Part shown: positions 27,803 through 40,584 of the stretch, in pieces
How positions within the stretch are numbered: position 1 is the stretch's first letter
How the letters are laid out: each line of letters opens with the position of its first letter
Origin: Candidatus Latescibacterota bacterium
Lineage (GTDB): Bacteria; Latescibacterota; UBA2968; UBA8231
Length of the DNA stretch: 64,000 nt
Direction of reading: 5' to 3'
Assembly: GCA_963422735.1 (NCBI GenBank)
Contig: OY730476.1
Span: 1,696,001 to 1,760,000 of the forward strand
Made by a program: the position numbers and the translations under genes
The notes under the pieces: model-generated
Database searches by the model: none
What the model was told of the DNA's origin: nothing
What the model saw: the letters and a program-made list of their open reading frames with translations, nothing else

Positions 27803-28006
27803 CTTCAATTATCGGGGACAAGCCGGGTGGAGTGGGCGACCTACTTGCTTCCGGTGCGGCTGCGGATAGGAGGATCGTGGCGTTTGACTTTCTGCTTGAA
27901 AATATCTTGAATCCCTTAACGTACGAGCGTACTCTGCGGACAAATTGCGCGTTTTCGCCGGGTAGCCCGCGTGGTAAAAAGTTAGCTACAAGGAGGATTG
28001 AGTTCC

Positions 28007-28843
28007 ATGAGCGAGTCGAAGAGCGATGCGAGATACACGATGGGACGCACCCAAGGGGAGGAGGAGCGTCTGATTCAGCAGTCGCAGTTGTACGATGCTG
28101 TGACGCGGCGTTTCCTCAAAGAGGCGGGCCTCAGCAGCGGGATGAAGGTACTCGATATTGGCAGCGGTGCCGGGGATGTGGCTCTGACAGCCGCCGAGTT
28201 GGTCGGTCCAGAAGGGATTGTCGTGGGCGTGGATGTAAATGCGGCGATTCTCGAAACGGCGCAGGCACGGGCGCAGGAAGCCGGGTTTGCCAACGTCGAA
28301 TTCATCGCGGGGGATGCCCGGACTCTGGACCTCGGAAACGATTTCGACGCCCTGATCGGTCGGCTGGTCCTCATGTATATGGCCGATCCCACCGACGCCC
28401 TAAAACAGCTAGCGACCCGCTTGCGCCCGGGGGGGATCGCGGCCTTTCAGGAGGCTGATTTCACGCCCTATCGGTGGCTTACTCATCCAGACACGCCCTT
28501 GGCGAACCAGCTAATCGAGTGGGCTCTCGGAGTATTCGAGCGCTCCGGGGCGCATATTGGCATGGGCCTCGACCTGTACCGCGCTTTTGTCGAGGCTGGT
28601 TTGCCCGAGCCTGCCATGCACTTCGAGTCTCCGGTCGGCGGTCCAAAGATGTGGGCGGGGTACCAATTCGTTGTCAACAGCTTTCGCAGTATGCTCCCGC
28701 TCATAGAAGAGTACGGGATTGCGACGGCAGAAGAGGTCGATGTGGAAACCCTCGCCGAGCGGGTTCGGCGAGAAGTGGTCGCGGCGAAACGCCCGTTTGC
28801 CCTGCCGCCCCATGTAACCGCTTGGGCACAGCTTGCGAGCTAA
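28007..28843 (+). CDS. Class I SAM-dependent methyltransferase
   Basis: VLDIGSGAG, GVD, FD, LRPGG; AGGAGG RBS. Confidence 0.9.
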   Translation: MSESKSDARYTMGRTQGEEERLIQQSQLYDAVTRRFLKEAGLSSGMKVLDIGSGAGDVALTAAELVGPEGIVVGVDVNAAILETAQARAQEAGFANVEFIAGDARTLDLGNDFDALIGRLVLMYMADPTDALKQLATRLRPGGIAAFQEADFTPYRWLTHPDTPLANQLIEWALGVFERSGAHIGMGLDLYRAFVEAGLPEPAMHFESPVGGPKMWAGYQFVVNSFRSMLPLIEEYGIATAEEVDVETLAERVRREVVAAKRPFALPPHVTAWAQLAS

Positions 28844-28847
28844 AGCA

Positions 28848-29924
28848 ATGAGCAAGTGGAAAATCGCCGGAATCAACTTCGACCATCTGCACATGGGCGA
28901 CAATCTGCGCATGGCCTTTGAGCACGCAGACGTCGAGATCGTCGGCATTTGCGACGAGCAGCCCGAGCGCATGAGGCAGGCGTGTGAGGATTTCGCCATT
29001 CCAGCCGACCGGGTTTTCAGCGACTACCGGGCGTGTTTGGAAAAGACCCGGCCGGACATCGTCCTTTTGTGCCCGGCCACGGCCGAACACGGGGAGTGGA
29101 CCGAAAAGGTCGCGCCTTTTGGCGTGCATATTATCATGGAAAAACCCTTTGCCGCCACCCTCGCCGAGGCGGACCGGATGCAGCGGGCCATGGAAGGGAC
29201 GGGCAAACTGTTGGCGATCAACTGGCCGCTGGCTTGGTATCCGCCGCACCGCACCGCACGGCGGCTCATCACTGCCGGCGAGATCGGCGAGGTGATCGAA
29301 GTCCACTACTACGACGGCAACCGAGGACCGCTGTGGCACCTCGCCGACAAAGTGGAGCGCACGGCCGATGGTGTCGAGCGCGAAAAGCCCACGAGTTGGT
29401 TTTACAAAAAGGCAACGGGCGGCGGCTCCCTGTTAGATTACCTAGGCTACGGCACCACATTGGGTGCCTGGTACATGGACGGCCGGGCACCGATTGAGGT
29501 GACAGCGACCGTAGATCAGCCCCAAGGGCTCGAAGTAGATGAGCACTGCATTGCGGTGGCGCGCTACGAGCGAGGCCTGTCGAAATTCGAGACGCGCTGG
29601 GGCACCTTTACCGACCCTTGGACCCTGCAACCCCAGCCCAAGTGCGGCTTCGTCATCGTCGGCAGCAAGGGCACGATCAGCTCCTACGACTACGAGGAGG
29701 TAATCCGCGTACAGACGCGGGCGCAACCAGCAGTCGAGCAACGGCCCGTAGATGTGCTCGAACCGCCTTTCCAGAATCCCATCCAGTACGTGATTCACTG
29801 TATCGAAGAGGGCCAACCCATTGAGGGACCGCTCTCGCCGGCCCTGTGCCGCATCGGGCAACAGATCGTCGATACCGCTTATCAGAGCGCCGCGCAGAAG
29901 CGCACGTTGCCCCTGGTTCAATAG
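28848..29924 (+). CDS. Gfo/Idh/MocA oxidoreductase
   Basis: MEKP, GGGSLLDY.GY. Confidence 0.88.
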   Translation: MSKWKIAGINFDHLHMGDNLRMAFEHADVEIVGICDEQPERMRQACEDFAIPADRVFSDYRACLEKTRPDIVLLCPATAEHGEWTEKVAPFGVHIIMEKPFAATLAEADRMQRAMEGTGKLLAINWPLAWYPPHRTARRLITAGEIGEVIEVHYYDGNRGPLWHLADKVERTADGVEREKPTSWFYKKATGGGSLLDYLGYGTTLGAWYMDGRAPIEVTATVDQPQGLEVDEHCIAVARYERGLSKFETRWGTFTDPWTLQPQPKCGFVIVGSKGTISSYDYEEVIRVQTRAQPAVEQRPVDVLEPPFQNPIQYVIHCIEEGQPIEGPLSPALCRIGQQIVDTAYQSAAQKRTLPLVQ

Positions 29925-29927
29925 CTT

Positions 29928-31043
29928 ATGGCAGAAAGCCAAGATAGCGGCTACGGCCGAGGCAAAACCGGGTCGGAAGCTGAAGTAGCAGCTCCAGATT
30001 TGCCCTACCAGCCGCGCGATCCGGTGACCTATCGTCCGCAGATCGGCTTGATTGGCTGCGGAGGCATATCCGAGATGCACTTGCGGGCCTATAAAAACGC
30101 CGGCTATGAGGTCGCGGCCCTGTGCAGCCGAGATCGGGGGCGCGTCGAGCAGCGGCGGGAATTCTACCCGGCGGCCGACACATACCTCGACTATCGGGAG
30201 CTGCTCGCCCGCGACGATGTCGAGGTGGTGGACATTACGCCCCATCCGCAGGAGCGGCTGCCGATTCTCGAAGCGGCCATTGACGCTGGCAAACACGTCC
30301 TGAGCCAGAAGCCTTTTGTGCTCGACTTGGATGTGGGCGAACAACTCATTGCGCAGGCCGAGCGACGCGGCTTGCAACTAGCCGTCAACCAGAATGGCCG
30401 TTGGGCACCGCATTTTAGCTACATGCGCCACGCTGTGGCCGCTGGCTTAGTCGGCCAAGTGCAGAGCGTTGAGTTCGCCGTGCATTGGGACCACAACTGG
30501 ATTGCTGGCTCCGCTTTTGACGCGGTGGACGATCTGGTGCTCTATGACTTTGGGATGCACTGGTTCGATATGGCGGTGGTGCTCTTAGGCAGCGAAAAGC
30601 CGCAAAGGGTCCACGCTTCCGCTCGGCACGCAGCCGGCCAAGAGGCCAAACCGCCGCTTTTGGCCCAAGCGGCGATTGAGTGCGCGGGGGCGCAGGCGAC
30701 AATCTTCTTTAACGGCAACACTCGCCAGGGACAACAAGACCACACTTATCTCGTCGGCACGGAGGGCGCAATAGGGGCCAGTGGTGTAGATCTGACCGCG
30801 CAGGAAGTCATCTTATACACCGCAGCGGGTGTGGCCCGGCCGCAGCTTACAGGGACGTGGTTTGAGCAAGGTTTTCACGGGACCATGGCCGAACTGCTCT
30901 GCGCCGTCGAGGAAGGCCGCGAACCTTCTAACAGCGCCCGCGCCAATCTCGCAAGCTTGGCGCTGTGCTTTGCGGTCGTGGCGAGCGCCCGCAGTGGAAA
31001 GCCAGTAGTGCCGGGGACGGTGCGACGATTGCCCGGCCGTTAA
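29928..31043 (+). CDS. Gfo/Idh/MocA oxidoreductase
   Basis: IGLIGCGGI, GKHVLSQKP, D.GMHWFD. Confidence 0.9.
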   Translation: MAESQDSGYGRGKTGSEAEVAAPDLPYQPRDPVTYRPQIGLIGCGGISEMHLRAYKNAGYEVAALCSRDRGRVEQRREFYPAADTYLDYRELLARDDVEVVDITPHPQERLPILEAAIDAGKHVLSQKPFVLDLDVGEQLIAQAERRGLQLAVNQNGRWAPHFSYMRHAVAAGLVGQVQSVEFAVHWDHNWIAGSAFDAVDDLVLYDFGMHWFDMAVVLLGSEKPQRVHASARHAAGQEAKPPLLAQAAIECAGAQATIFFNGNTRQGQQDHTYLVGTEGAIGASGVDLTAQEVILYTAAGVARPQLTGTWFEQGFHGTMAELLCAVEEGREPSNSARANLASLALCFAVVASARSGKPVVPGTVRRLPGR

Positions 31044-31091
31044 GCCGCCTACAATTTTGCCGCCAGACGGCAATCCTCTTGGAGGTTTTCT

Positions 31092-31940
31092 ATGGATTCG
31101 ACCTGCCTGCAACACCCCTTGACCAAGGAGGAACGCCGCCAATTTGAAAAAGATGGCTTCTTCATCGTCCGCGATGTGCTGCCCTTGGATTTGGTAGATA
31201 AGCTCATTCCCATCGTCGATCGCCTCGATGCCGAGTACCGGCTGCAAAAAGGGCTGGAAAAGCACCAGATGCACAACTTGTTCGACTTTATCGGCAAAGA
31301 TGAACTCTTTCTGGCGTTGCTCGACTGGCCAAAGACATTCGCCAAGGTCTTTGGGATTTTGGGCTGGCACATTCAGCTCTACCACTCGCACTTGATCGTT
31401 ACTCCGCCTTTAGACGGCGTCGTGCCCAAACGCAAGCGGCTAGGCTGGCATCAAGACAGCGGGCGGCTCAACATCGACTTGGAGACTCAGCCCCGGCCGA
31501 GGGTCTCGCTCAAGGTGGCGTACTTTCTCACGGACTGCACCGAGACCAATCGCGGCAATTTCCACGCCGTACCCGGCTCGCATCTGAAAAGCGAGGTCGA
31601 GATGCCAGCGGACGAGGACTTAGATCCAGCGGGCGCAGTGCCGATCCAAGTGGCGGCGGGAGACGCGGTATTTTTTGACCGACGGATCTGGCATGCGGCC
31701 GGCCACAACTTTTCGCCCGAGGCGCGCAAGGCACTGTTTTACGGCTATAGCTACCGCTGGTTGCGGCCGCGCGACGACATGACGGTGGAGCACCTGATGG
31801 ACCGCTGCGATCCAATCCGACAGCAGCTACTCGGTGCCGGTCCGAGCGGCGGGCACGGCTACACCTCGCCCAAAGAAGAAGACGTGCCGCTGAGAGAGTG
31901 GATTCGCGAGCATCTGGGTGGAGAAGCGGTGGTGCAATAA
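31092..31940 (+). CDS. PhyH-family Fe(II)/2OG dioxygenase
   Basis: WHQD, VPGSH, GDAVFFDRRIWH. Confidence 0.9.
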   Translation: MDSTCLQHPLTKEERRQFEKDGFFIVRDVLPLDLVDKLIPIVDRLDAEYRLQKGLEKHQMHNLFDFIGKDELFLALLDWPKTFAKVFGILGWHIQLYHSHLIVTPPLDGVVPKRKRLGWHQDSGRLNIDLETQPRPRVSLKVAYFLTDCTETNRGNFHAVPGSHLKSEVEMPADEDLDPAGAVPIQVAAGDAVFFDRRIWHAAGHNFSPEARKALFYGYSYRWLRPRDDMTVEHLMDRCDPIRQQLLGAGPSGGHGYTSPKEEDVPLREWIREHLGGEAVVQ

Positions 31941-31942
31941 AA

Positions 31943-34900
31943 TTAGGCTGCCGTCAGGCCCACGAAGAGCCGGCTGGACAGGCTGGTCAGCGGCTCGACC
32001 TCGCCGCGCACAGCCGCCCTAGCAAAGACTACGCCTGGCTGCGCGGCCCTAGCGGCCCGACCCAAAATGTGGTAATCGGCGCGACCGGGCTGTTGGGCCG
32101 CTTCCCGCGCCTCGGTCCAGCCTTGGTTGGTAGCGGCCAAGCCCCATAAAGCACGCGGTGCCCGCACCTTGGTCTCCTCGACCGATAGGCCGTCGCGCCA
32201 ACAACCGCGCTGGGCGAATAGACCGCCGTCTTCCCGATAGATCAGCCCGCCGCCCACGTATTGGATCAACTGCTGTTGGCTGCCCCGCGCCCCCGATAGC
32301 GTCAACAAGGCTAGGGTCCCCAAGTCGTTGTCGTCGAAATCGGCCTGCCGGTAGAAAGCCGCCACTAACTCGTCGCTGTACATTTGCCACTCGTCCCAAT
32401 TGATCTCTTTGGGTTGCTCAGGCCACTCCCTGCTCGAACCCAAGAAGGGATTGAAGGAGGCCCCCGACTGCTTGCAGACCTCAAAGCCGCGCCGCGTTAG
32501 CTGGTCGAGCACTTCCAGTGCTCGCTCCCAACCCTCGCGCTGCAGCACCTGAGCTAGCAAGCGGTTGAGTGTGCGCTTGGTGAATAGCCGGCTGCCATCC
32601 ACGGCCCCTTTGGTCAGCTCCTCCACTTCAGCGCGACCTTCCTCGGTGCGGCACAGCCGAGCCAAGCCCCAGCTCATGCCGTGATAGTTGTCGGCTATGT
32701 AGCGCCATACATCCGCATCGCGCTGTATGTGTCCGGCCACCGACAGCGCGGTTCCGGCTTCGGCCTGAGCTTCTTCAGTGAGGGGCAAAAACACCTCGAT
32801 GTGGTCGCCGTCGAAATCTAGCTCCATCAGTCGGCAAACGCGCGGATGGACGCGCACGGCAGCCCCGGCCAAACGCTGCGGACGAAAGGCCACCACCGCA
32901 GTGGGCGGCACGTGGCCCTCGTCCACCAGCACCCGCTGGGCACTGTACAGCAGCACCCACGAGCGTGCCATAATCGCGTCTAGAACCTCAGCCGCTCGGG
33001 CTGAACGCCGCGCACGACCCATCTCCCGCTCTACCTGAGGCCCAAACAAAGCCCAAGCCATTTCCTCGGGCAGGCCCACTTGGTCGAGATTCAGTTCAAA
33101 GCCCGAAGCGAGCGCGGCTCGGCCACTGAACAGCGGTCTGGCCTCGAAGTGAAGGAACTCCGGGCGCAACAACGCGGCAAAAAAATCCTCCACCCGTTGG
33201 GCCACCTGGGCCACTGCGGGGCCGGTTAGGGCCTCGGGTGCATCGCTATCGACGACGCGTTGCAAGCGCTCATTGGCTTCGACCAAATCCTCGAAGCAGG
33301 CTCGGATTGGATCGAACTCGGTCCTCGCGGGCAAGGCAACGGGAGACCCCACCGTCCCGATCTGGTGCCCCGGGGCCCACGGGTGCGGCACTAGCTGGGC
33401 CAAGGTCAGCCCCTCGGGCTCGGCAAAGGAAAAGCGCAACTCCGCGCCCGCCAATTTGGCCCGTATCCCGGCCATACCCAACAACTGCTGCAACAAGGCA
33501 AAGCGCGGGGACGGGGCTGGGGACGGGGACACCGGGCCGGTGGTTAGGCGCTGGCCCAGCGTATTGGCGTCGGGCCGCTCAGCTGCGGCCGTGTTGAACA
33601 AAGCGTGGATATTGGCTACGGCCCCGGCCTCACACAAAGCTCCGTAGGCCATCATATCGAGCTCTGGGCCGCCGGCCCTTGCCACCGCGGTTTCCAAGCG
33701 TTCGGCCGCGGTGTGGGTCAGGCGGCCCCAGTACACCCAACCCACGGTACTGCGATAGGGCAGCTTTGCGCCTTTGAGGGTCAGTTGCTCCATGCCGTCT
33801 TCGGGCAGTCCCGCCTCGACTAGACGCGCTTTCAACATCTCTTCGCTGGGTGCCTCGAAAGGCGGCACCACCGCCGGAGTCTCTTCGGCCCGGGCAATGC
33901 GACCCATGACCGCCTCGCGCTGCTGGCCGAAATTGAGCCGCGAGACCATACTGGTGGGACTGAAGATGAGCTCTACCAGCGCCCCATCGGGCAACTGCGG
34001 CATGTCGGCGTCGGGCAGGATGCGGGTCACCACCCCTTTGGCACCGTGGCGATTGCCCATGCGGTCTCCCACCCCGACTGCGGCGGGAAAATTCATCCGC
34101 GCCGCAGCCGACTCGCTGATGACCAAGCCATCCTCAAACGTGTCCCCGTCCCACATGATGAAGGCGGTCAGCAGATTGTACCCACCCCAAAAGTCGGGGG
34201 CTTCGGGCTCGTATCCCGTCTGCACTAGAGCTGGCTCGGGTTTGTTGCCCTTAGAGGCCAAGCACTGGTCGTACTGCTGGCGGAACCAACCCGTAGAGTG
34301 GACCGGAGCCGCTGTATCGGCGGCACTCGTCCACTGGCGCATCATGTTGATGCCCATCAGGGCGCGATTGGTATCGTCGTGTTCGAGAAAGGGCACCATG
34401 GAGGCCGAAAAGCCCAAGATGCTGTCGGGCGCATTGTCGATCCGTTCGAGCTTGCCGTCGCGGATGCGAGCCCCGCGGGCCACTTCGAGCACGCGGCCAA
34501 TATTGGGGCCCTCAGGGGTGCAGTAGGGGCACACTAGGCCGTATTGGCTGTAGGGGAAAACGCCCTGATCGTCAAAAGGCTCGACGACAACGGGGATCAA
34601 AGTCAGCCGCCGCAGATGGGTATAGCGGTCGAGCCAGTTGGTCGCCTGTAGGTACTGCGAGGTTTCCCCCAAGTGGAAGTCGCGCATCCAGGCGTCCAGC
34701 GGCAGCCAGTTGCGCACCAAGTCGCCGTCCCAAGCCAACTGTTCGGGGGCCACCTCCAACCTTTGGTCAATAAAGTCGTAGAGCTGCTCACCCACGCACA
34801 GAATCCGCGCTTGTTCGAGCGCACGCCGGTCGGGATAGGGAACCACGACCCGGTAGTTGCCTTCAATGTGGAAAAGGCCGTCTCGGTCGGGCCGCGGCAA

Positions 34901-35092
34901 ATCCCGGTACTCAACCTCGACCGAGGCATGGCCGAGCCCCAAACTCAGTTTAACGGAAAAAGTATAAGGGTCCTGTTGTTCGACTCGATAATCGGCCAGC
35001 GGCAAGCGCTCGCCCAAAAGCCGGGGCAGTCGCTGGTGGACGAAAAGGTCAAAGGACTCCCGGTGCCAAGGTACGTCGAGATTCAATGTCAT
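31943..35092 (-). CDS. Minimal single-chain RNA polymerase beta-beta' fusion protein (1049 aa)
   Basis: Collinear beta motifs (TPEGPNIG, PFLEHDD.NRALMG.NM.RQ, FED...ISE, GD.M..RHG.KG, SR.N.GQ) then beta' motifs (clamp helices, SGR, GLP..MA..LF.P, DFDGD, SGARGS, region H). GGAGG RBS; ATGA overlap with the sigma stop. Confidence 0.92.
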   Translation of the reverse strand: MTLNLDVPWHRESFDLFVHQRLPRLLGERLPLADYRVEQQDPYTFSVKLSLGLGHASVEVEYRDLPRPDRDGLFHIEGNYRVVVPYPDRRALEQARILCVGEQLYDFIDQRLEVAPEQLAWDGDLVRNWLPLDAWMRDFHLGETSQYLQATNWLDRYTHLRRLTLIPVVVEPFDDQGVFPYSQYGLVCPYCTPEGPNIGRVLEVARGARIRDGKLERIDNAPDSILGFSASMVPFLEHDDTNRALMGINMMRQWTSAADTAAPVHSTGWFRQQYDQCLASKGNKPEPALVQTGYEPEAPDFWGGYNLLTAFIMWDGDTFEDGLVISESAAARMNFPAAVGVGDRMGNRHGAKGVVTRILPDADMPQLPDGALVELIFSPTSMVSRLNFGQQREAVMGRIARAEETPAVVPPFEAPSEEMLKARLVEAGLPEDGMEQLTLKGAKLPYRSTVGWVYWGRLTHTAAERLETAVARAGGPELDMMAYGALCEAGAVANIHALFNTAAAERPDANTLGQRLTTGPVSPSPAPSPRFALLQQLLGMAGIRAKLAGAELRFSFAEPEGLTLAQLVPHPWAPGHQIGTVGSPVALPARTEFDPIRACFEDLVEANERLQRVVDSDAPEALTGPAVAQVAQRVEDFFAALLRPEFLHFEARPLFSGRAALASGFELNLDQVGLPEEMAWALFGPQVEREMGRARRSARAAEVLDAIMARSWVLLYSAQRVLVDEGHVPPTAVVAFRPQRLAGAAVRVHPRVCRLMELDFDGDHIEVFLPLTEEAQAEAGTALSVAGHIQRDADVWRYIADNYHGMSWGLARLCRTEEGRAEVEELTKGAVDGSRLFTKRTLNRLLAQVLQREGWERALEVLDQLTRRGFEVCKQSGASFNPFLGSSREWPEQPKEINWDEWQMYSDELVAAFYRQADFDDNDLGTLALLTLSGARGSQQQLIQYVGGGLIYREDGGLFAQRGCWRDGLSVEETKVRAPRALWGLAATNQGWTEAREAAQQPGRADYHILGRAARAAQPGVVFARAAVRGEVEPLTSLSSRLFVGLTAA

Positions 35093-35688
35093 TGATGTTC
35101 CTCCGGGTTATTAATGGCCTGCCAAGCCCGTGAGATCTGGCGGCGGCCGTGGTGCAGACGCGACTTTACGGTGCCTTCGGGAATGCCCAGTCGCTCGGCC
35201 GCATCTCGCACTTCGACTTGGGCGTCGTAGATCAGACGGAAAACCTCGCGCTTGTCCTCGGACAGTGCCTGTACTTGTCGCCGCAGCCAGCGCTGCTGGT
35301 CGGCCCGTTCCACCTCGGCGTCGGGGCGCTCAGACGCGGCCTCAATCATCCATTCGGGCACTTGGTGCGTTTCCTTCTCCACGGTTTCAGACAGCATTTC
35401 CAGCCGTTGCTCCCGCCGCCTTTGCACAGTGCGCAGGTGAGTTAGAGAAAGATGAGTAGCAATGCGGAACAGCCAGCCAGCCGCAGAGCCTCGACCGCTC
35501 CATTGGCCAGCTCGGTTCCACACCCGCAAGAAAACCTCCTGCACCACGTCGTTGGTACTCGCATCATCGCGGACGATGCGGCGCACGTGGTGGTGGATCT
35601 GCTCCCGATAGCGCTCAAAGAACTGCTCAAACGCGCGGGCATCGCGTTCTTTTATTTGCACTATGAGTTGTGAGTCCGGTATCTGCAT
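35089..35688 (-). CDS. ECF-family sigma-70 factor (199 aa)
   Basis: ATG at 35688 after GGAGG; region 2 DVVQEVFLRVW..WLFRIA; region 4 AAERLGIPEGTVKSRL. Confidence 0.93.
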   Translation of the reverse strand: MQIPDSQLIVQIKERDARAFEQFFERYREQIHHHVRRIVRDDASTNDVVQEVFLRVWNRAGQWSGRGSAAGWLFRIATHLSLTHLRTVQRRREQRLEMLSETVEKETHQVPEWMIEAASERPDAEVERADQQRWLRRQVQALSEDKREVFRLIYDAQVEVRDAAERLGIPEGTVKSRLHHGRRQISRAWQAINNPEEHQ

Positions 35689-35708
35689 CGAGGCCCTCCG
35701 CAGATAAA

Positions 35709-35734
35709 GACGCCGCCCGGAAAGTACAGGTTCA
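35709..35734 (-). promoter_or_regulatory. Putative ECF-sigma (autoregulatory) promoter TGAACC-N16-CGTC
   Basis: Minus strand TGAACC tgtactttccgggcgg CGTCT, 20 nt before the sigma ATG; matches the general ECF AAC/CGT pattern and spacing. Confidence 0.65.
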
Positions 35735-35881
35735 AGGACGAAGATGAAAAAGCCCGGAAACCTCATTGGAGACTGGCTTTCTCCCCGAATTGACTCACTA
35801 GTCGAGCACGGTATCTTACCACCCACCGCCTGAAGACCAGCCTCAACCCTTACAGACGCTCCTGCGCTAGATCGAGACCCC

Positions 35882-36530
35882 ATGAGCCTAACACCAGCCC
35901 AACTCAACCAGTTCCACCGCGACGGCTATATCATCGTCTCCGATCTGTTCACGGCCGACGAGATGGATGCCGCCCTAGCGGCGATGGAACAGATTTTCTA
36001 CGGCCAATCCTTCCAGCAATGGTTGGCCGTTTGCGACCGCGGTGAAGCGGCCAGAGTCTCGGACGGCTTTACCACCACGCACGACCACTCGGAGGGGCGC
36101 TCGCAATTTCCCGTGGGTGCGCCGGCCTTGGACCGGCTAATAGAAAAAGAGACCTACCTCGACATTTTTGAGCAATGCTTAGGCGCAAAAGCTAGCTACT
36201 GCAATGCCCACCTCTTTATGCGCTCGGGGCCTACTGACAAGCGCCATCCCCACAACCCTTGGGAGGGCTACCACATGGACCACTACACTAATTGCCTGCT
36301 GCCGCCCCACGACCAGACAGGCCGGTTTGACTACGTCAATTCGGGGGTGTACCTGCACGATGTCGGCGACGACGGTGCCCCCATGCTGGTCATCCCCGGC
36401 TCGCACAAAGTAGCCGGTCCCGCTTTTGTGCGAGCCTTTGCCCAAGGCAACGCTGCGGGTGGGTCCTTCAAAGACCTGTGCCAAGTCACCGAACTAGCCG
36501 CCCCGGTCCCCGCCACCGCCCGGCGCGGGA
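35882..36530 (+). pseudogene. PhyH-family dioxygenase, 3'-truncated
   Basis: FHRDGY, YHMD, IPGSH; ends at RRGS before the distal His. Confidence 0.75.
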
Positions 36531-36534
36531 GTCT

Positions 36535-37344
36535 ATGGCGGCCATCCGCCGCCTGCTAAGTCACCTCGATCCAGCGGCCTTGCGGGGCCGCCTCACGGCC
36601 ATCCCGGTAGTCAACGAGGCGGCCTATTGGCGCGGCCAGCGCACGGCCGAAGATGGGCTGGACTTGGCCCGCACCTGCCCAGGTCGGCCCGATGGCTCGA
36701 TTACCGAGCGCACAGCCCACGCCGTCAGCCAAGAAATCCGCCGGGCCGACTATCTCATCGACCTGCACAGCGGCGGGCTAGTCATGGAATTCTACCCTAC
36801 CGCGGGGTACACCCTGCATCCCGATAAAGCCATCCTCGAGGTGCAACGGCGCATGGCCCGAGCGCTGAATATGCCCATCATCTGGGGCACTTCGGCCCGG
36901 CTCGACGGACGCACGCTTTCGGTAGCCCGCGACGCCAACGTGCCAGCCATCTACGCCGAGTGGATGGGGGGTGGCACGTGCGATCCCCAGGGCGTGGATG
37001 CTTATTTCGAGGGCTGCTTGAACATCTTGGCCGAACTAGATCTGATCGACCGCACCCTGCCGCCCCTGCACACCGAGTACACCGTGGAGGACGACCGCGA
37101 CAACGCTGGCCACGTGCAGCTCAATTACCCAGCGCCCTTTGCTGGCTATTTTGAACCCCAAGTGACATTGAAAGCACCCGTGCAACCGGGCGATGTGATC
37201 GGCACGGTGGTAGATCATCTGGGGCAGCGGCGCGAGGAAGTGGTATCGACCCAAGCGGGCTTGATCCTGTGTCTGCGGGTCTTCAACCGCGTCCACCAAG
37301 GCGACAGTTTGGCCGCGGTTTTAGAACTCGACCCTTCCCAATAA
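36535..37344 (+). pseudogene. Succinylglutamate desuccinylase/aspartoacylase family, 5'-truncated
   Basis: IPVVN, DL.R.CPG, IDLHSGG, C-terminal biotinyl-like hairpin; lacks the N-terminal HG.E motif. Confidence 0.75.
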
Positions 37345-37612
37345 CCCCCTTTTCTGCGCCGCTAGACCCGCGCTGTTTCCAGCCCTCGCAAGTAGAAGAC
37401 CGGATAAATGCGCTTTCCAAAGATGTCCGACGGCTTACTGTGGCGCAGACTCACTGGACCCTAACTTCGGCTACGAAGGATGAGAATCTCTACCGAATCC
37501 AGACGTATTCGCACTCAAAGAAGCCATTGATGGGCGATCGATATTCGAGAGACTCTGGATCGTTGACAACGCGGTTCGGGCACAAATGATTTTTGGGGTC
37601 GGACACCGGTTT

Positions 37613-38473
37613 TTATACGCTGGCCACCTTGCTGCAATCTAGCGAAAACATGAGCGGCAAACTGCGATCTGGAATTTCCCAGTACCCATCGGCACCTTGC
37701 ACCATACACGCGAATCTGCGATAAGAGCAGTAAGGAAACTCCTCTAAGCGGTCGATCGCCAGACCAGCGGATGCAGCCGCTGTGACAAATTCCCCCATGT
37801 GGTGAGACCACTGGTATGTAGTCGTGTTCACCAGACGACCGCCCTCACCTGTGTAAGATTCCTCGGCCGTGCATAATTCGGGCGTCTCCTCGTGGAAATA
37901 GCTGTCGTTGAGTGAAAATGAACCGCTCGCGGCATCATAGGTAAGCATGTCGAGCACTGGATGTCCATCGACGACGAAAACTCGGCCGCGAAGTTTCAAC
38001 ATTGCGCTCGCAATCGAAAACCAGCGCTGGAGATCCGGTATCCAGCAGAACACGCCGTGGGAAGCAAAGACCAGATCGAATGATTGGCGCTCCAAGCGAT
38101 CGCCCACAGAGTACACGTTAGCACAGTGGAACTCGGCACTCAATCCAGTCTCTTCGGCCAGTTCGCGTGCTTTCTCAATTGCTGCGTCGGAAAAGTCCAC
38201 GCCCGTCACGATCCCACCCATTCTACTGAGAGAAAGGGAATCGAGGCCGAAGTGGCATTGCAGGTGGAGAATTCGCTTTCCGGCGACATCGCCAAGCGCT
38301 TTGATCTCGACCGGTCCCAAGGTGCATTGACCAGAGAGAAATCCCAACACGTCGTAAAACTTCGTCCCCAAGTGGAGTCCGACTCTTTCGTTCCAATTCT
38401 CGCGATTGGCGCGAAAGTAGGTTTCGTCAAAGGGCTTCAATCTTGAAACCTTTCGCGTATCCCCGGCGCACAT
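37613..38473 (-). CDS. Class I SAM-dependent methyltransferase
   Basis: N...WNER, LHLQCHFGLD, GVDFS, WIPDL. Start uncertain. Confidence 0.88.
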   Translation of the reverse strand: MCAGDTRKVSRLKPFDETYFRANRENWNERVGLHLGTKFYDVLGFLSGQCTLGPVEIKALGDVAGKRILHLQCHFGLDSLSLSRMGGIVTGVDFSDAAIEKARELAEETGLSAEFHCANVYSVGDRLERQSFDLVFASHGVFCWIPDLQRWFSIASAMLKLRGRVFVVDGHPVLDMLTYDAASGSFSLNDSYFHEETPELCTAEESYTGEGGRLVNTTTYQWSHHMGEFVTAAASAGLAIDRLEEFPYCSYRRFACMVQGADGYWEIPDRSLPLMFSLDCSKVASV

Positions 38474-38499
38474 CGTCTATCACCCTGTCCGAGAACATT

Positions 38500-39471
38500 T
38501 TAGGCGCAGACGGCCGCATCGGTGCTCCAGCGGTTGAAGGGGGTATGCTCCTCTTGGGCCAGCCGGTCGCGGGTGTCGCGCCAGAGCTTTTCCCACGCTA
38601 CGGGATCGCGCAAGACGCTTGCGGGGTTAGCTCTGCTGCGGGCGGCAAAGCCGGGGAAGAGGTCGCGGCCCGTGGGCTGGCCGACTGGATTGTAGCGCAA
38701 ATCAAAGCTCCAGCGCACATCGTCGCTGGCGTTGACCAGCGAGCCGTGGATGGTGTGGCGAGTGAGGAAGAGCACATCGCCGGGCTGCATGGGCACCGGC
38801 AGGGCCGCGTCCATATCCATAAGCAGCTCCGGGATCCACAGACCCCCCGGTCCCCCCGGACAGTGCGTGTGCAGCCCCCGGCGGTGGCTACGGGGCATAA
38901 TCTGCAGACAGCCGTTTTCGATCGTCGCCTCATTGAGCGGAAACCACACCGTCAAGACCTCCGAGTCGTCGGCTTCGGGCAGGACTACGCCGTTGTCTTG
39001 GTGCCAGTTGGTGGCACTGACTAGGGCTTGGCCGTTGTGGTCTTTGGGCACTAGGCGTTCGGGCGGCTTGAGGCGCACGTGCTGGACGGGGTTGGACCAG
39101 ATCTCGGGACCGACGATGGACTCGACCGCATCGAGGAGGTCGGGGTCGGTAATGCAGCGAAAGACGGCTGGCCCGGCCCAGAAGGGAGTGTCGGCCTCGA
39201 TGCCCGTCTGGGGCAGGGAGAAGTCGAAGTACTGGGCGTGGATCTGGCCGCTATCGACGACGATTTGAGTCAGGCGCTTGCCAAAGGGCAGGTCATCGTA
39301 CGTGGACGCGATCCGGCCGGCTTGGTAGAGCGCACAAGCGAGCTTGTCGAGGACGCTGTGGTATTCGTCGATAATGGGCTGGATGACCTCGTCCACGTCG
39401 AGCATCCCCCTGACTAGTAAGTAGCCTTCTTCGTCAAAGTGTGCGAGTTGTTCGTCCGTCAAGCATGGCAT
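38500..39471 (-). CDS. PhyH-family Fe(II)/2OG dioxygenase
   Basis: WHQD, ENGCL, PGDVLF..HTIH.S, RWSFDLRY. Confidence 0.9.
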   Translation of the reverse strand: MPCLTDEQLAHFDEEGYLLVRGMLDVDEVIQPIIDEYHSVLDKLACALYQAGRIASTYDDLPFGKRLTQIVVDSGQIHAQYFDFSLPQTGIEADTPFWAGPAVFRCITDPDLLDAVESIVGPEIWSNPVQHVRLKPPERLVPKDHNGQALVSATNWHQDNGVVLPEADDSEVLTVWFPLNEATIENGCLQIMPRSHRRGLHTHCPGGPGGLWIPELLMDMDAALPVPMQPGDVLFLTRHTIHGSLVNASDDVRWSFDLRYNPVGQPTGRDLFPGFAARSRANPASVLRDPVAWEKLWRDTRDRLAQEEHTPFNRWSTDAAVCA

Positions 39472-39666
39472 ATGCTTTCCTCCGTGGGTTCATGGGGTTC
39501 TCCTTTAGGGTTAAGGAGGTTAATTATTCTTTATCCACTCGGCACCAAAGGCATCTAGCCAGTATGTGCGTGTCCTGTTGAAGAGTTCAATTTGCGCTTG
39601 AGTATAGCGATATGGTCCGTTTGCGAATAGCTAAAAGGAGGAGCGTCGCTTAATTGTCGCGTCGCA

Positions 39667-40584
39667 ATGGTTATGGAATTTCCCAAACTCGACGAAGCCC
39701 TGCGCTTGGATCGGTTGAAACCGCCGACAGACAAGGTGCGGATGGTGCTCGACACCGATACGTACAACGAGATCGACGATCAGTTCGCAGTGGTCCAAGC
39801 GCTGCTCTCGCCCGACCAGCTTGCAGTCGAGGCGATCTACGCGGCACCGTTCTACAACAGCCGTTCGGCCGGGCCGGGCGACGGGATGGAGAAAAGCTAC
39901 GCGGAAATCCTGCAGCTCTTGGAGCGGTTGGATATCTCGCCTGAGGGCTTGGTGTTCCGAGGAGCGACGGATATACTGCGAGACGACGCGCCGCAGGAAA
40001 GCGCAGCGGTCGATGACCTGATCGCCAAATCCAAAACCGCCGACCCGCTCTACGTGGTAGCTATCGGCGCGCTCACTAACATAGCGTCGGCTATTCTGCA
40101 AGATCCTGCCATAATCGAGCGGATCGTCGTGGTCTGGCTCGGCGGCCACGCTCACTACTGGCCAACGGCTGACGAATTCAACCTTCAAGGCGATCTCGTA
40201 GCAGCACAGGTGGTCTTTGACAGCGGCGTGCCCTTCGTCCAGATCCCATGCCACCCCGCGGCCTCGCACCTACAGACGACGCTGGCGGAGTTGGAGCGCT
40301 TCGTCAAGGGGCGAGGGGCGATTGGCGACTATTTGGTCGATATCTTCACCGCCTATTCCCAAAACCACTTCGCCTCTTCCAAGGTGATCTGGGACATGTC
40401 GGCGGTCGCTTGGCTGCTCGACGCATCGTGGGTGCCAACCGACGTGGTACATAGCCCGGTGTTGACCGATCAAAAGACTTGGAGCCACGACTCGTCGCGG
40501 CACTTTATGCGGGTGGCGCGAACGGTGCGGCGCGATGCGATCTTCGGAGATTTATTCGAGAAACTGGAATTGCGCCAGAGCTAG
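39667..40584 (+). CDS. Nucleoside hydrolase
   Basis: LDTDTYNEIDDQFA, IGALTNIA, WLGG, EFN, WD. Confidence 0.88.
   Translation: MVMEFPKLDEALRLDRLKPPTDKVRMVLDTDTYNEIDDQFAVVQALLSPDQLAVEAIYAAPFYNSRSAGPGDGMEKSYAEILQLLERLDISPEGLVFRGATDILRDDAPQESAAVDDLIAKSKTADPLYVVAIGALTNIASAILQDPAIIERIVVVWLGGHAHYWPTADEFNLQGDLVAAQVVFDSGVPFVQIPCHPAASHLQTTLAELERFVKGRGAIGDYLVDIFTAYSQNHFASSKVIWDMSAVAWLLDASWVPTDVVHSPVLTDQKTWSHDSSRHFMRVARTVRRDAIFGDLFEKLELRQS

Follow-up and report, generated by a model that had tools for sequence, protein, structure and literature searches.

The window analyzed here, a stretch of 64,000 nucleotides from a Candidatus Latescibacterota bacterium (assembly GCA_963422735.1, contig OY730476.1, positions 1,696,001 to 1,760,000 of the forward strand), carries a two-gene cassette consisting of a gene for an extracytoplasmic function (ECF) type sigma factor and, behind it, a gene for a 1049-residue RNA polymerase in which beta- and beta'-like halves form one chain (beta::beta'), with a conserved ECF-type promoter in front. 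The cassette lies at 1.73 Mb in the genome. An earlier note, made from the letters of the window alone, had seen matching losses of charge on the clamp helices of this polymerase and on region 2.2 of the sigma factor, and had proposed that the two surfaces co-evolved into an orthogonal pair or that phosphorylation switches the sigma factor between two polymerases. The analysis described here follows both surfaces through their families.

The sigma-polymerase cassette

The first gene encodes an ECF (group 4) sigma factor of about 200 residues with regions 2 and 4 only (Sigma70_r2, 3.8e-15; Sigma70_r4_2, 5.3e-13; TIGR02937, 97.2 bits against a cut-off of 42.9), whose best relatives in the PDB are ECF sigma factors (E 3.9e-31). 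Its start was taken as the ATG at 35686-35688, and a longer open reading frame (ORF) of 272 aa that begins at 35907 is not conserved upstream of that methionine. The TGA stop of the sigma gene and the ATG of the polymerase gene overlap as ATGA. The polymerase ORF matches Pfam domains of both large subunits (Rpb2_3; Rpb2_6, 2.5e-29; Rpb1_2, 7.3e-11) and the NCBIfam models for rpoB and rpoC only partially and far below their cut-offs (TIGR02013, 158 bits against 801; TIGR02386, 76.5 against 963.5), and is for these reasons read as a fused, shortened beta::beta' enzyme. The elements of a two-barrel catalytic core, namely Rpb2 domain 6, NRHG-KG and the beta' DFDGD motif, occur in the polymerase of the window and in the majority of 111 relatives, and this mini polymerase is not a full-length equivalent of RpoB or RpoC, as its scores lie under the cut-offs and the flap is absent. 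Ordinary RpoB and RpoC, called those of the host below, are encoded by the same genome at 161755-169709 (RpoC, G000:C1:165591-169709).

Comparison by hhalign relates the mini polymerase to host RpoB with a probability of 100% (E 3.6e-46). Host residues 791-1031, the flap domain of about 240 residues, have no counterpart and fall into a gap between residues 331 and 337 of the mini polymerase, so that the canonical anchor of sigma region 4 is missing from it. A 47-sequence family alignment relates it to host RpoC with a probability of 99.8% (E 3.8e-30) over host residues 270-777 of 1373 and runs on from the clamp-helix hairpin through the FSGR and GLPEEMAW segments to the DFDGD loop. RpoC residues 1-269 and those beyond 777 have no aligned counterpart, the mini polymerase itself ending shortly after the aligned part; their loss would presumably remove the zinc finger, the lid and the trigger loop, and because the alignment begins only at residue 270 the N-terminal clamp is missing as well. 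Most of the 111 family proteins have an intact DFDGD pentapeptide, and 11 carry a substituted one, where its first Asp is Asn (ANFDGD, 3), Ser (SFDGD, 1) or Tyr (YFDGD, 1) or it reads DFDGN (4), DFAGD (1) or DYDGD (1). To judge from these sequences, copies with a substituted catalytic loop may have altered activity or be inactive.

Table 1. Features of the cassette, with positions in the window
Feature	Position	Strand	Basis
ECF-type promoter-like element upstream of sigma gene	35709..35735	minus	sequence reading and conservation across loci
ECF (group 4) sigma factor, 199 aa	35089..35688	minus	Pfam, TIGR02937, start conservation
Sigma region 2.2 motif STND, residues 44-47, DAED column	35548..35559	minus	alignments
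Single-chain beta::beta' mini RNA polymerase, 1049 aa	31943..35092	minus	ORF, Pfam
Beta-like half of mini polymerase, residues 88-552	33437..34831	minus	hhalign to host RpoB 401-1267
Clamp-helix (coiled-coil) homologue, residues 600-638 (host RpoC 271-309)	33179..33295	minus	BLASTP, hhalign
Beta'-like half, residues 599-994: clamp helices, catalytic double-psi barrel, bridge-helix region	32111..33298	minus	hhalign
Catalytic DFDGD, residues 759-763, counterpart of beta' NADFDGD	32804..32818	minus	alignment

The two genes travel together. Sigma region 2 and the clamp helices are encoded on one strand, 2.3-3.0 kb apart, in 65 of 74 fetched loci, a set in which some genomes occur twice. Among the exceptions, four loci have too little DNA on one side (L021, L023, L038, L043), two have no sigma gene in the DNA available at the locus (L037, L044), in one the insertion of an ABC exporter gene separates the two, with the sigma gene 2.4 kb further upstream (L148), and the last two, where it is deleted, are taken up below. 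Of 34 distinct junctions, 20 have the stop codon of the sigma gene overlapping the start of the polymerase gene, and seven more have the two no more than 30 nt apart; the frequency of the overlap suggests coupled production. Among 168 genomes of the window's phylum, the polymerase occurs in 66 and the sigma family in 63, with both in 62, the polymerase only in four, the sigma factor only in one (at a contig end) and neither in 101; intact sigma factors score at least 237 bits there, fragments 141-195 and any other ECF at most 124. In the phylum of locus L024 (176 genomes) 31 genomes hold both, one a sigma pseudogene only, one a polymerase fragment only and 143 neither, and in a sample of 401 genomes from the phylum of L031 the polymerase is present in all 26 sigma-bearing genomes. 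Eight further genomes of that sample bear the polymerase, five with a weaker sigma match (145-154 bits) directly upstream and three holding fragments. These counts come from related genomes and are not independent, and the pattern recurs in three phyla; in these, sigma factor and polymerase are co-inherited.

Some genomes have a gene between the two (L169:753-2546, L171:1033-2793, L173:660-1850), which in two of them, genomes of different families, is an ABC exporter (ABC_membrane plus ABC_tran) and in another a 396-aa ORF without a Pfam match; in several more the gap between sigma gene and polymerase gene is about 1.3-2 kb. A protein from the representative library, P0172 (824 aa), was considered as a natural fusion, since it joins sigma residues 1-165 in frame to polymerase residues 416-1046. 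Both parts are truncated, and with neither sigma region 4 nor the beta half the protein probably arose by deletion or as an artefact of assembly.

Upstream of the sigma gene lies a promoter-like element with a -35-like TTGAACC (35729-35735) and a -10-like GGCGTC (35709-35714) at a spacing of 14 nt, followed by a GGAGGG ribosome-binding site at 35694-35699. The pattern TGAAC[CT]-N14-GG[TC]GTC, which a narrower one tried (GAAC-N15-19-CGT) had missed, is invariant in the alignment of the genus and precedes the sigma gene in most of 29 diverse loci whose upstream regions were read, across phyla (L026, L027, L029-L033, L039, L041, L139, L141, L142, L145, L149-L153, L155, L157, L163, L165, L166); it was not seen in four of the 29 (L022, L024, L036, L164). 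Its distance from the sigma start is about 25-35 nt, and greater in L153 and L165. The conservation of such an element before the sigma gene suggests autoregulation.

The clamp-helix hairpin and the sigma region 2.2 motif

The segment of the mini polymerase that the earlier note had aligned gaplessly with the beta' clamp helices (residues 594-638, DPIRAC...EDFF, at 33179-33313) does align in this way. BLASTP against the genome's own RpoC (E 2e-20) pairs residues 600-638 with RpoC 271-309 without a gap, and the hhalign comparison described above begins at 599/270 in the same register. The segment lies directly N-terminal of YSGRS, in register with beta' 269-307, and is on these grounds the predicted clamp-helix homologue. 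The A-P turn of the hairpin is kept (P619 in 110 of 111 proteins), as is a conserved core of N607, R609, R612, P619, L622 and R633. The observation that most basic residues had become neutral or acidic was equally correct: over the 39 hairpin residues the net charge is +6 in host RpoC and -6 in the window. The hairpins of 30 distinct canonical beta' sequences (from metagenome contigs, and that of the host) range from +2 to +6 with a mean of 4.6, and those of 111 full-length family proteins from -6 to +3 with a mean of -1.8, the mean being -4.3 for 48 close relatives of the window and 0.0 for 63 distant members. The canonical baseline stems from a metagenome scan with the family alignment, which returned mostly ordinary rpoB/rpoC and family members only in L037-L044. 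The loss of positive charge is thus real, lies far outside the canonical range and is a property of the whole family.

The hairpin can be compared residue by residue if it is numbered by the E. coli protein (Table 2). The offset, with host Tyr271 equal to Ec269, is inferred, on the basis that the eight clamp-helix contacts named for the sigma32 open complex then fall on R, R, K, L, I, I, E and M of the host. These contacts are described as R275, R278, R281, L282, L285, I291, E295 and M298, facing D77, E81, I84 and M87 of the sigma factor (PMC10216364), and NusG is described as needing R270, R278 and R281 (PMC12364105).

Table 2. Hairpin positions (E. coli numbering) in the mini-polymerase family (n=111) and in canonical beta' sequences (n=30)
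Position	Family	Canonical
Ec270	20% K/R, 60% D/E	R 29/30
Ec271	0% K/R	R 30/30
Ec275	A 80, V 27, 0% K/R	R 30/30
Ec278	99% K/R	R 30/30
Ec280	1% K/R	K 26, R 3
Ec281	92% K/R	R 24, K 4
Ec285	S 70, N 30	L 17, I 12
Ec286	5% K/R	K 16, R 3
Ec293	8% K/R	R 27/30
Ec295	A 83, T 25	E 30/30
Ec296	5% K/R	K 29/30
Ec297	23% K/R	R 30/30
Ec298	Q 92	M 30/30
Ec302	R 103	A 20, S 10

Only Ec278 and Ec281, out of the ten basic hairpin positions of the host, are still basic in the family. Among the named sigma contacts, 278, 281, 282 and 291 are kept or conservatively replaced, and 275, 285, 295 and 298 are changed. The changed positions have not drifted but are conserved at new identities across the 111 proteins, a sign of continuing selection on this surface. 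In older genetics, R275Q, E295K and A302D reportedly impair sigma70 binding. The named contacts pair across the hairpin at a residue-number sum of about 576-577 (285/291, 281-282/295, 278/298), and by this numbering Ec302 would stand opposite Ec275, so that the Arg lost at 275 and the Arg gained at 302 may keep the charge in the same layer. In the window genus, helix 1 begins with Y/F-E-D in place of the R-R of the host and has Glu605 in place of its Asn.

On the side of the sigma factor, the reading of STND in place of DAED was likewise accurate in position and alignment column, and the background given with it, that DAED acids contact the basic beta' clamp helices and that EcfP carries STTA there and needs phosphorylation, agrees with what is described for these proteins (PMC8999054; PMC8103513). 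In a 19-sequence alignment the motif stands directly before an invariant V/L-x-Q-E-x-F helix (V-V-Q-E-V-F in the window), and HMMER aligns its column to EAED in SigW (5wuq) and to EAQD in PDB 6in7_B; since the latter is a solved ECF, a neutral third position is not peculiar to the window sigma. The core Asp, D47, and Q50 are invariant (19/19), and D47, E51, L54 and W57 match the spacing of sigma32 D77, E81, I84 and M87; the canonical partner residues D47, Q50, E51, L54 and W57 are all kept.

The motif itself varies by lineage. In the window genus (15 distinct pairs) it reads SAND, with GTDD once (L011) and STND in the window; outside the genus it reads AAED, AADD, VADD, TADD, SAED and the like, a consensus of xA(E/D)D as in ordinary ECFs. 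A sigma profile search of 1.84 billion representatives gave 142 matches, of 150 listed, in which all four columns were aligned. Among these listed matches, 79 carry the family signature W-x4-Q-[WFYL] and have the first Asp in 3, Asp or Glu at the third position in 62 and the fourth Asp in 78, while the 63 other ECF-like matches listed have them in 2, 55 and 54 (Asp or Glu at the fourth in 63). The nine other ECF-type sigma factors of the genome read LAED, TAED, EADD, DAED, QALD, AAED, DTED (twice) and AVED. A missing first Asp is therefore ordinary, being absent in 61 of the 63 neighbouring ECF representatives listed and in six of the nine other ECFs of the genome. On these alignments the only unusual feature of the window motif is the Asn at its third position, and STND is a genus-level variant of the family consensus.

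Readings of the sigma-polymerase pair

The reading preferred here is that the sigma factor docks on the remodelled hairpin through a retained Asp/Glu-Arg core, and that peripheral charge was lost family-wide without charge-for-charge co-evolution; we consider its chances about even. In this account the polymerase has dropped most of the clamp and kept the clamp-helix hairpin, the canonical dock for sigma region 2. The hairpin keeps the polar and hydrophobic core that contacts sigma factors in solved holoenzymes (E. coli R278, R281, L282, I291), with R270 and R271 replaced by acidic or neutral residues, R275 by Ala or Val, L285 by Ser or Asn, E295 by Ala or Thr, M298 by Gln and A302 often by Arg. 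Docking would then proceed through the retained Asp/Glu-Arg core, both the binding and the residues that touch being read from homology, and the peripheral positive charge would have gone as the contacts made by those residues in the cellular enzyme, such as that of R270 with NusG, were no longer needed. Homology, register, charge statistics, conservation, synteny and co-occurrence can be read directly from the sequences. These comparisons support a hairpin that may be a remodelled but conserved sigma dock, and with it a dedicated sigma-polymerase pair with an altered interface.

A wider claim, held tentatively and with somewhat less confidence, is that chromosomes of at least four bacterial phyla encode a second transcription system, complete in itself, in which a single-chain polymerase uses its sigma factor through the rewritten dock (R275A, E295A/T, M298Q, often A302R). 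If this is true, the second system would be naturally insulated from the sigma/core pairs of the cell and from NusG, and the window genus would show a further local adjustment of charge, with E-D-x-x-E on the helix and Asn in the sigma factor. The hairpin would also give direct access to the question of which clamp-helix residues are responsible for sigma binding and which serve other functions, since two arginines were kept and the rest discarded.

Several observations weigh against the docking reading. In two loci of the window genus (L006 and L010) the sigma gene is deleted down to remnants of 9-15 codons, and the long polymerase ORF persists, with 1052 aa in L006 and, truncated at the N terminus, 966 aa in L010. 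The Arg at Ec302 is not universal: 17 pairs from the third phylum have Ala in 7, Arg in 5 and Lys in 2, and Ec298 varies there too. Outside the window clade, the charge of the hairpin is weakly related to the net charge over a stretch of 10 sigma residues (rho -0.27, p 0.04, uncorrected and among related sequences), a residual trend that leaves room for some electrostatic tuning. Finally, the ECF-like -35/-10 layout of the promoter is kept in spite of the missing beta flap, as would be expected if the host core used it; the two possibilities are that the mini enzyme has some other hold on region 4 and that sigma factor and host core read the promoter together.

The last point leads to the alternative that survives best, although we find it rather unlikely: the sigma factor would serve the host core only and switch on its own operon, the mini polymerase would be sigma-independent cargo like the phage enzyme YonO, and the charges of the hairpin would have changed once binding of sigma factors and NusG was no longer selected. 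The missing flap and the ordinary promoter layout speak for it, as do the canonical core-binding residues of the sigma factor, the persistence of polymerase ORFs without a sigma gene and the wide variation of hairpin net charge, from -6 to +5 across the family; for YonO itself, the need for any factor is left open in its description (PMC5467207). It does not account well for a hairpin that was retained although the RpoC alignment starts only at 270, or for N607, R609, R612 and, in most members, Q629 and R633 being conserved rather than drifting. The sigma family is, moreover, essentially never found without the polymerase, and the start/stop overlap that suggests coupled production would be hard to place.

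Further behind, and improbable in our judgement, stands the charge-matched orthogonal pair of the earlier note, in which the acids of sigma region 2.2 were lost in step with the bases of the clamp helices and the sigma factor became excluded from the host core and specific for the mini enzyme. The window genus does pair the most acidic hairpins, those of the 48 close relatives, with the least acidic motif (SAND/STND), and a helix 1 that begins with Y/F-E-D and carries Glu605 could clash with an acidic residue in third place of the motif. Over 74 distinct sigma/hairpin pairs, taken from loci fetched by four routes (57 pairs in a first pass), hairpin charge and the number of motif acids show a rho of 0.43. 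This value comes from the window clade, a single lineage, alone, as rho falls to -0.14 (p 0.31, n=57 pairs) once the clade is removed; outside it, the mean hairpin charge is +0.14 with an acidic third position (n=44) and +0.31 without one (n=13). On a FastTree phylogeny of 55 polymerases, built with the hairpin removed, the third position changes state five times and yields four supported independent contrasts (on average the hairpin goes the same way 0.5 times, the opposite way 0.5 times and does not differ 3.0 times), which show no trend, in a test without power for significance. There are plain counter-examples as well: L011 regained an acid (GTDD) with its hairpin unchanged at -5, and L155, L156 and L032 pair AAED or AADD with hairpins of -4. 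The sigma factor has also kept the core Asp, Gln and Glu with which canonical clamp helices are bound, and 6in7_B has its EAQD in the same column.

The covariation across homologs to which the earlier note had looked, sought in the 74 pairs and the tree contrasts, was accordingly not replicated, and the co-evolution of the two surfaces by matching charge loss is not borne out, the sigma change being limited to one genus. The proposal had also depended on homologous sigma factors lacking DAED, and these largely retain its acids, at the third position in 62 of 79 and as the final Asp in 78 of 79 of those listed. What survives of the orthogonal-pair idea is the family-wide remodelling of the hairpin and the co-inheritance of sigma factor and polymerase; what does not is a matching loss of charge in the sigma factor. 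A caution follows for similar work, in that paired charge changes, striking as they look in a single genome, dissolved once the family was sampled.

One genome (G071) contains two diverged cassettes, L141 and L147 (the latter identical with L022), whose polymerases are 47% and 46% identical to that of the window. They differ in the sigma motif (SAED and TADD), and the second hairpin has no Arg at Ec302 and Arg at Ec280 and Ec298. This genome is a natural test case for cross-talk.

An EcfP-type switch, in which a Ser/Thr kinase would phosphorylate Ser44/Thr45, restore negative charge and redirect the sigma factor between the two polymerases, is the least probable of the explanations, and very much so. 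EcfP is described as carrying STTA, phosphorylated on the second Thr, with the kinase encoded alongside (PMC8999054; PMC8103513), and some kinase-linked ECF groups are described as having Ser or Thr in or near the motif (PMC8999054), as the window has at motif positions 1 and 2. The position that is phosphorylated in EcfP, the third, is Asn in the window and its genus and Asp or Glu in most family representatives listed; the final Asp, which EcfP lacks, is kept in STND and is invariant among the 19 aligned sequences; and Thr45 is Ala in other genus members (SAND, with GTDD in L011), Ser44 being limited to the genus. No kinase was found among the nine neighbouring ORFs of the window, nor one conserved around the cassette in 17 loci, and the three Pkinase matches of the genome (0.83, 4.89 and 4.91 Mb) all lie at least 0.9 Mb away, the nearest at about that distance. 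The suggestion of a phosphorylation switch is thus unlikely, with Asn at the phosphorylation site, the core Asp kept and no linked kinase.

Genomic setting and comparison with known systems

The nine neighbouring ORFs of the window (27998-31940 and 35882-40584) comprise three PhyH-family dioxygenases, two Gfo/Idh/MocA oxidoreductases, two methyltransferases, an AstE/AspA-like desuccinylase-like gene and a nucleoside hydrolase. In a comparison of 17 diverse loci none of them is kept beside the cassette in other lineages, and conservation is limited to the sigma factor and the polymerase. PADLOC gave no match to the polymerase and one weak CARF-model match to the sigma factor (E 4.7e-4), and no place in phage records covered 80% of the polymerase protein. 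By record titles, chromosomal copies of the family come from uncultured Latescibacterota, Poribacteria, Chloroflexota and Capsulimonas. A protein search scored 1251 proteins at E <= 0.001, among which ordinary RpoB/RpoC may be counted. Four loci from records titled Gemmatimonadetes or Gemmatimonadota (L009, L012, L017, L021) carry cassettes 86-90% identical to those of Latescibacterota records, which reflects either differing labels for one lineage or mixed bins.

The mini polymerase is clearly homologous to both large subunits of the host and has in common with them the catalytic DFDGD, NRHG-KG and a gapless hairpin in which R278 and R281 are kept. It differs from cellular RpoB/RpoC in being one chain of 1049 aa against about 2600, in having no flap and in the changes at eight of the ten basic hairpin positions and at four named sigma contacts. 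Its sigma factor resembles EcfP/ECF43 in being an ECF whose DAED column contains Ser/Thr and is poorer in acids than the textbook motif. EcfP, as described, has no acid at all in STTA and a co-encoded kinase (PMC8999054; PMC8103513), whereas the window sigma has an invariant final Asp, Asn at the phosphorylation site, two Asp before the motif and no linked kinase.

In the literature searched, which left subscription journals and supplements aside, the cassette is not described; the closest architectures are YonO (PMC5467207) and Orf6 (PMC2919709; PMC6211774). YonO of the Bacillus subtilis prophage SPbeta is likewise a single polypeptide, of about 100 kDa, that is related to the multisubunit polymerases and described as having no trigger-loop homology (PMC5467207). 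Compared by description, it has only a few catalytic residues in common with cellular enzymes, against about 850 aligned residues in the mini-polymerase family, and its description names no sigma partner and leaves the requirement for a promoter factor open (PMC5467207); the mini-polymerase family is chromosomal, and in phage records a coverage of 80% of its protein was not reached. The product of Orf6 on the yeast killer plasmid pGKL2, K2ORF6p, is an Rpb2::Rpb1 fusion of about 980 aa that has the beta-then-beta' order in common with the mini polymerase and is much like it in size and in the heavy reduction of the clamp (PMC2919709; PMC6211774), and in 2018 a killer-plasmid paper called such a fusion unknown in any other polymerase (PMC6211774). 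It belongs to a eukaryotic cytoplasmic element, is without a sigma factor and, as described, probably has no clamp coiled-coil (PMC6211774), whereas the mini polymerase keeps one.

Taken together, the single-chain relatives compared here, YonO and the killer-plasmid enzyme, are not described as using a sigma factor. Every sigma factor studied so far works, to our knowledge, with the five-subunit cellular core. If the tentative picture of a second transcription system is true, a compact enzyme that retains only the sigma dock, has an ECF sigma factor of its own as constant companion and is preceded by a recognisable promoter would rank as the smallest known polymerase to depend on a sigma factor, and would be a natural template for orthogonal gene expression.

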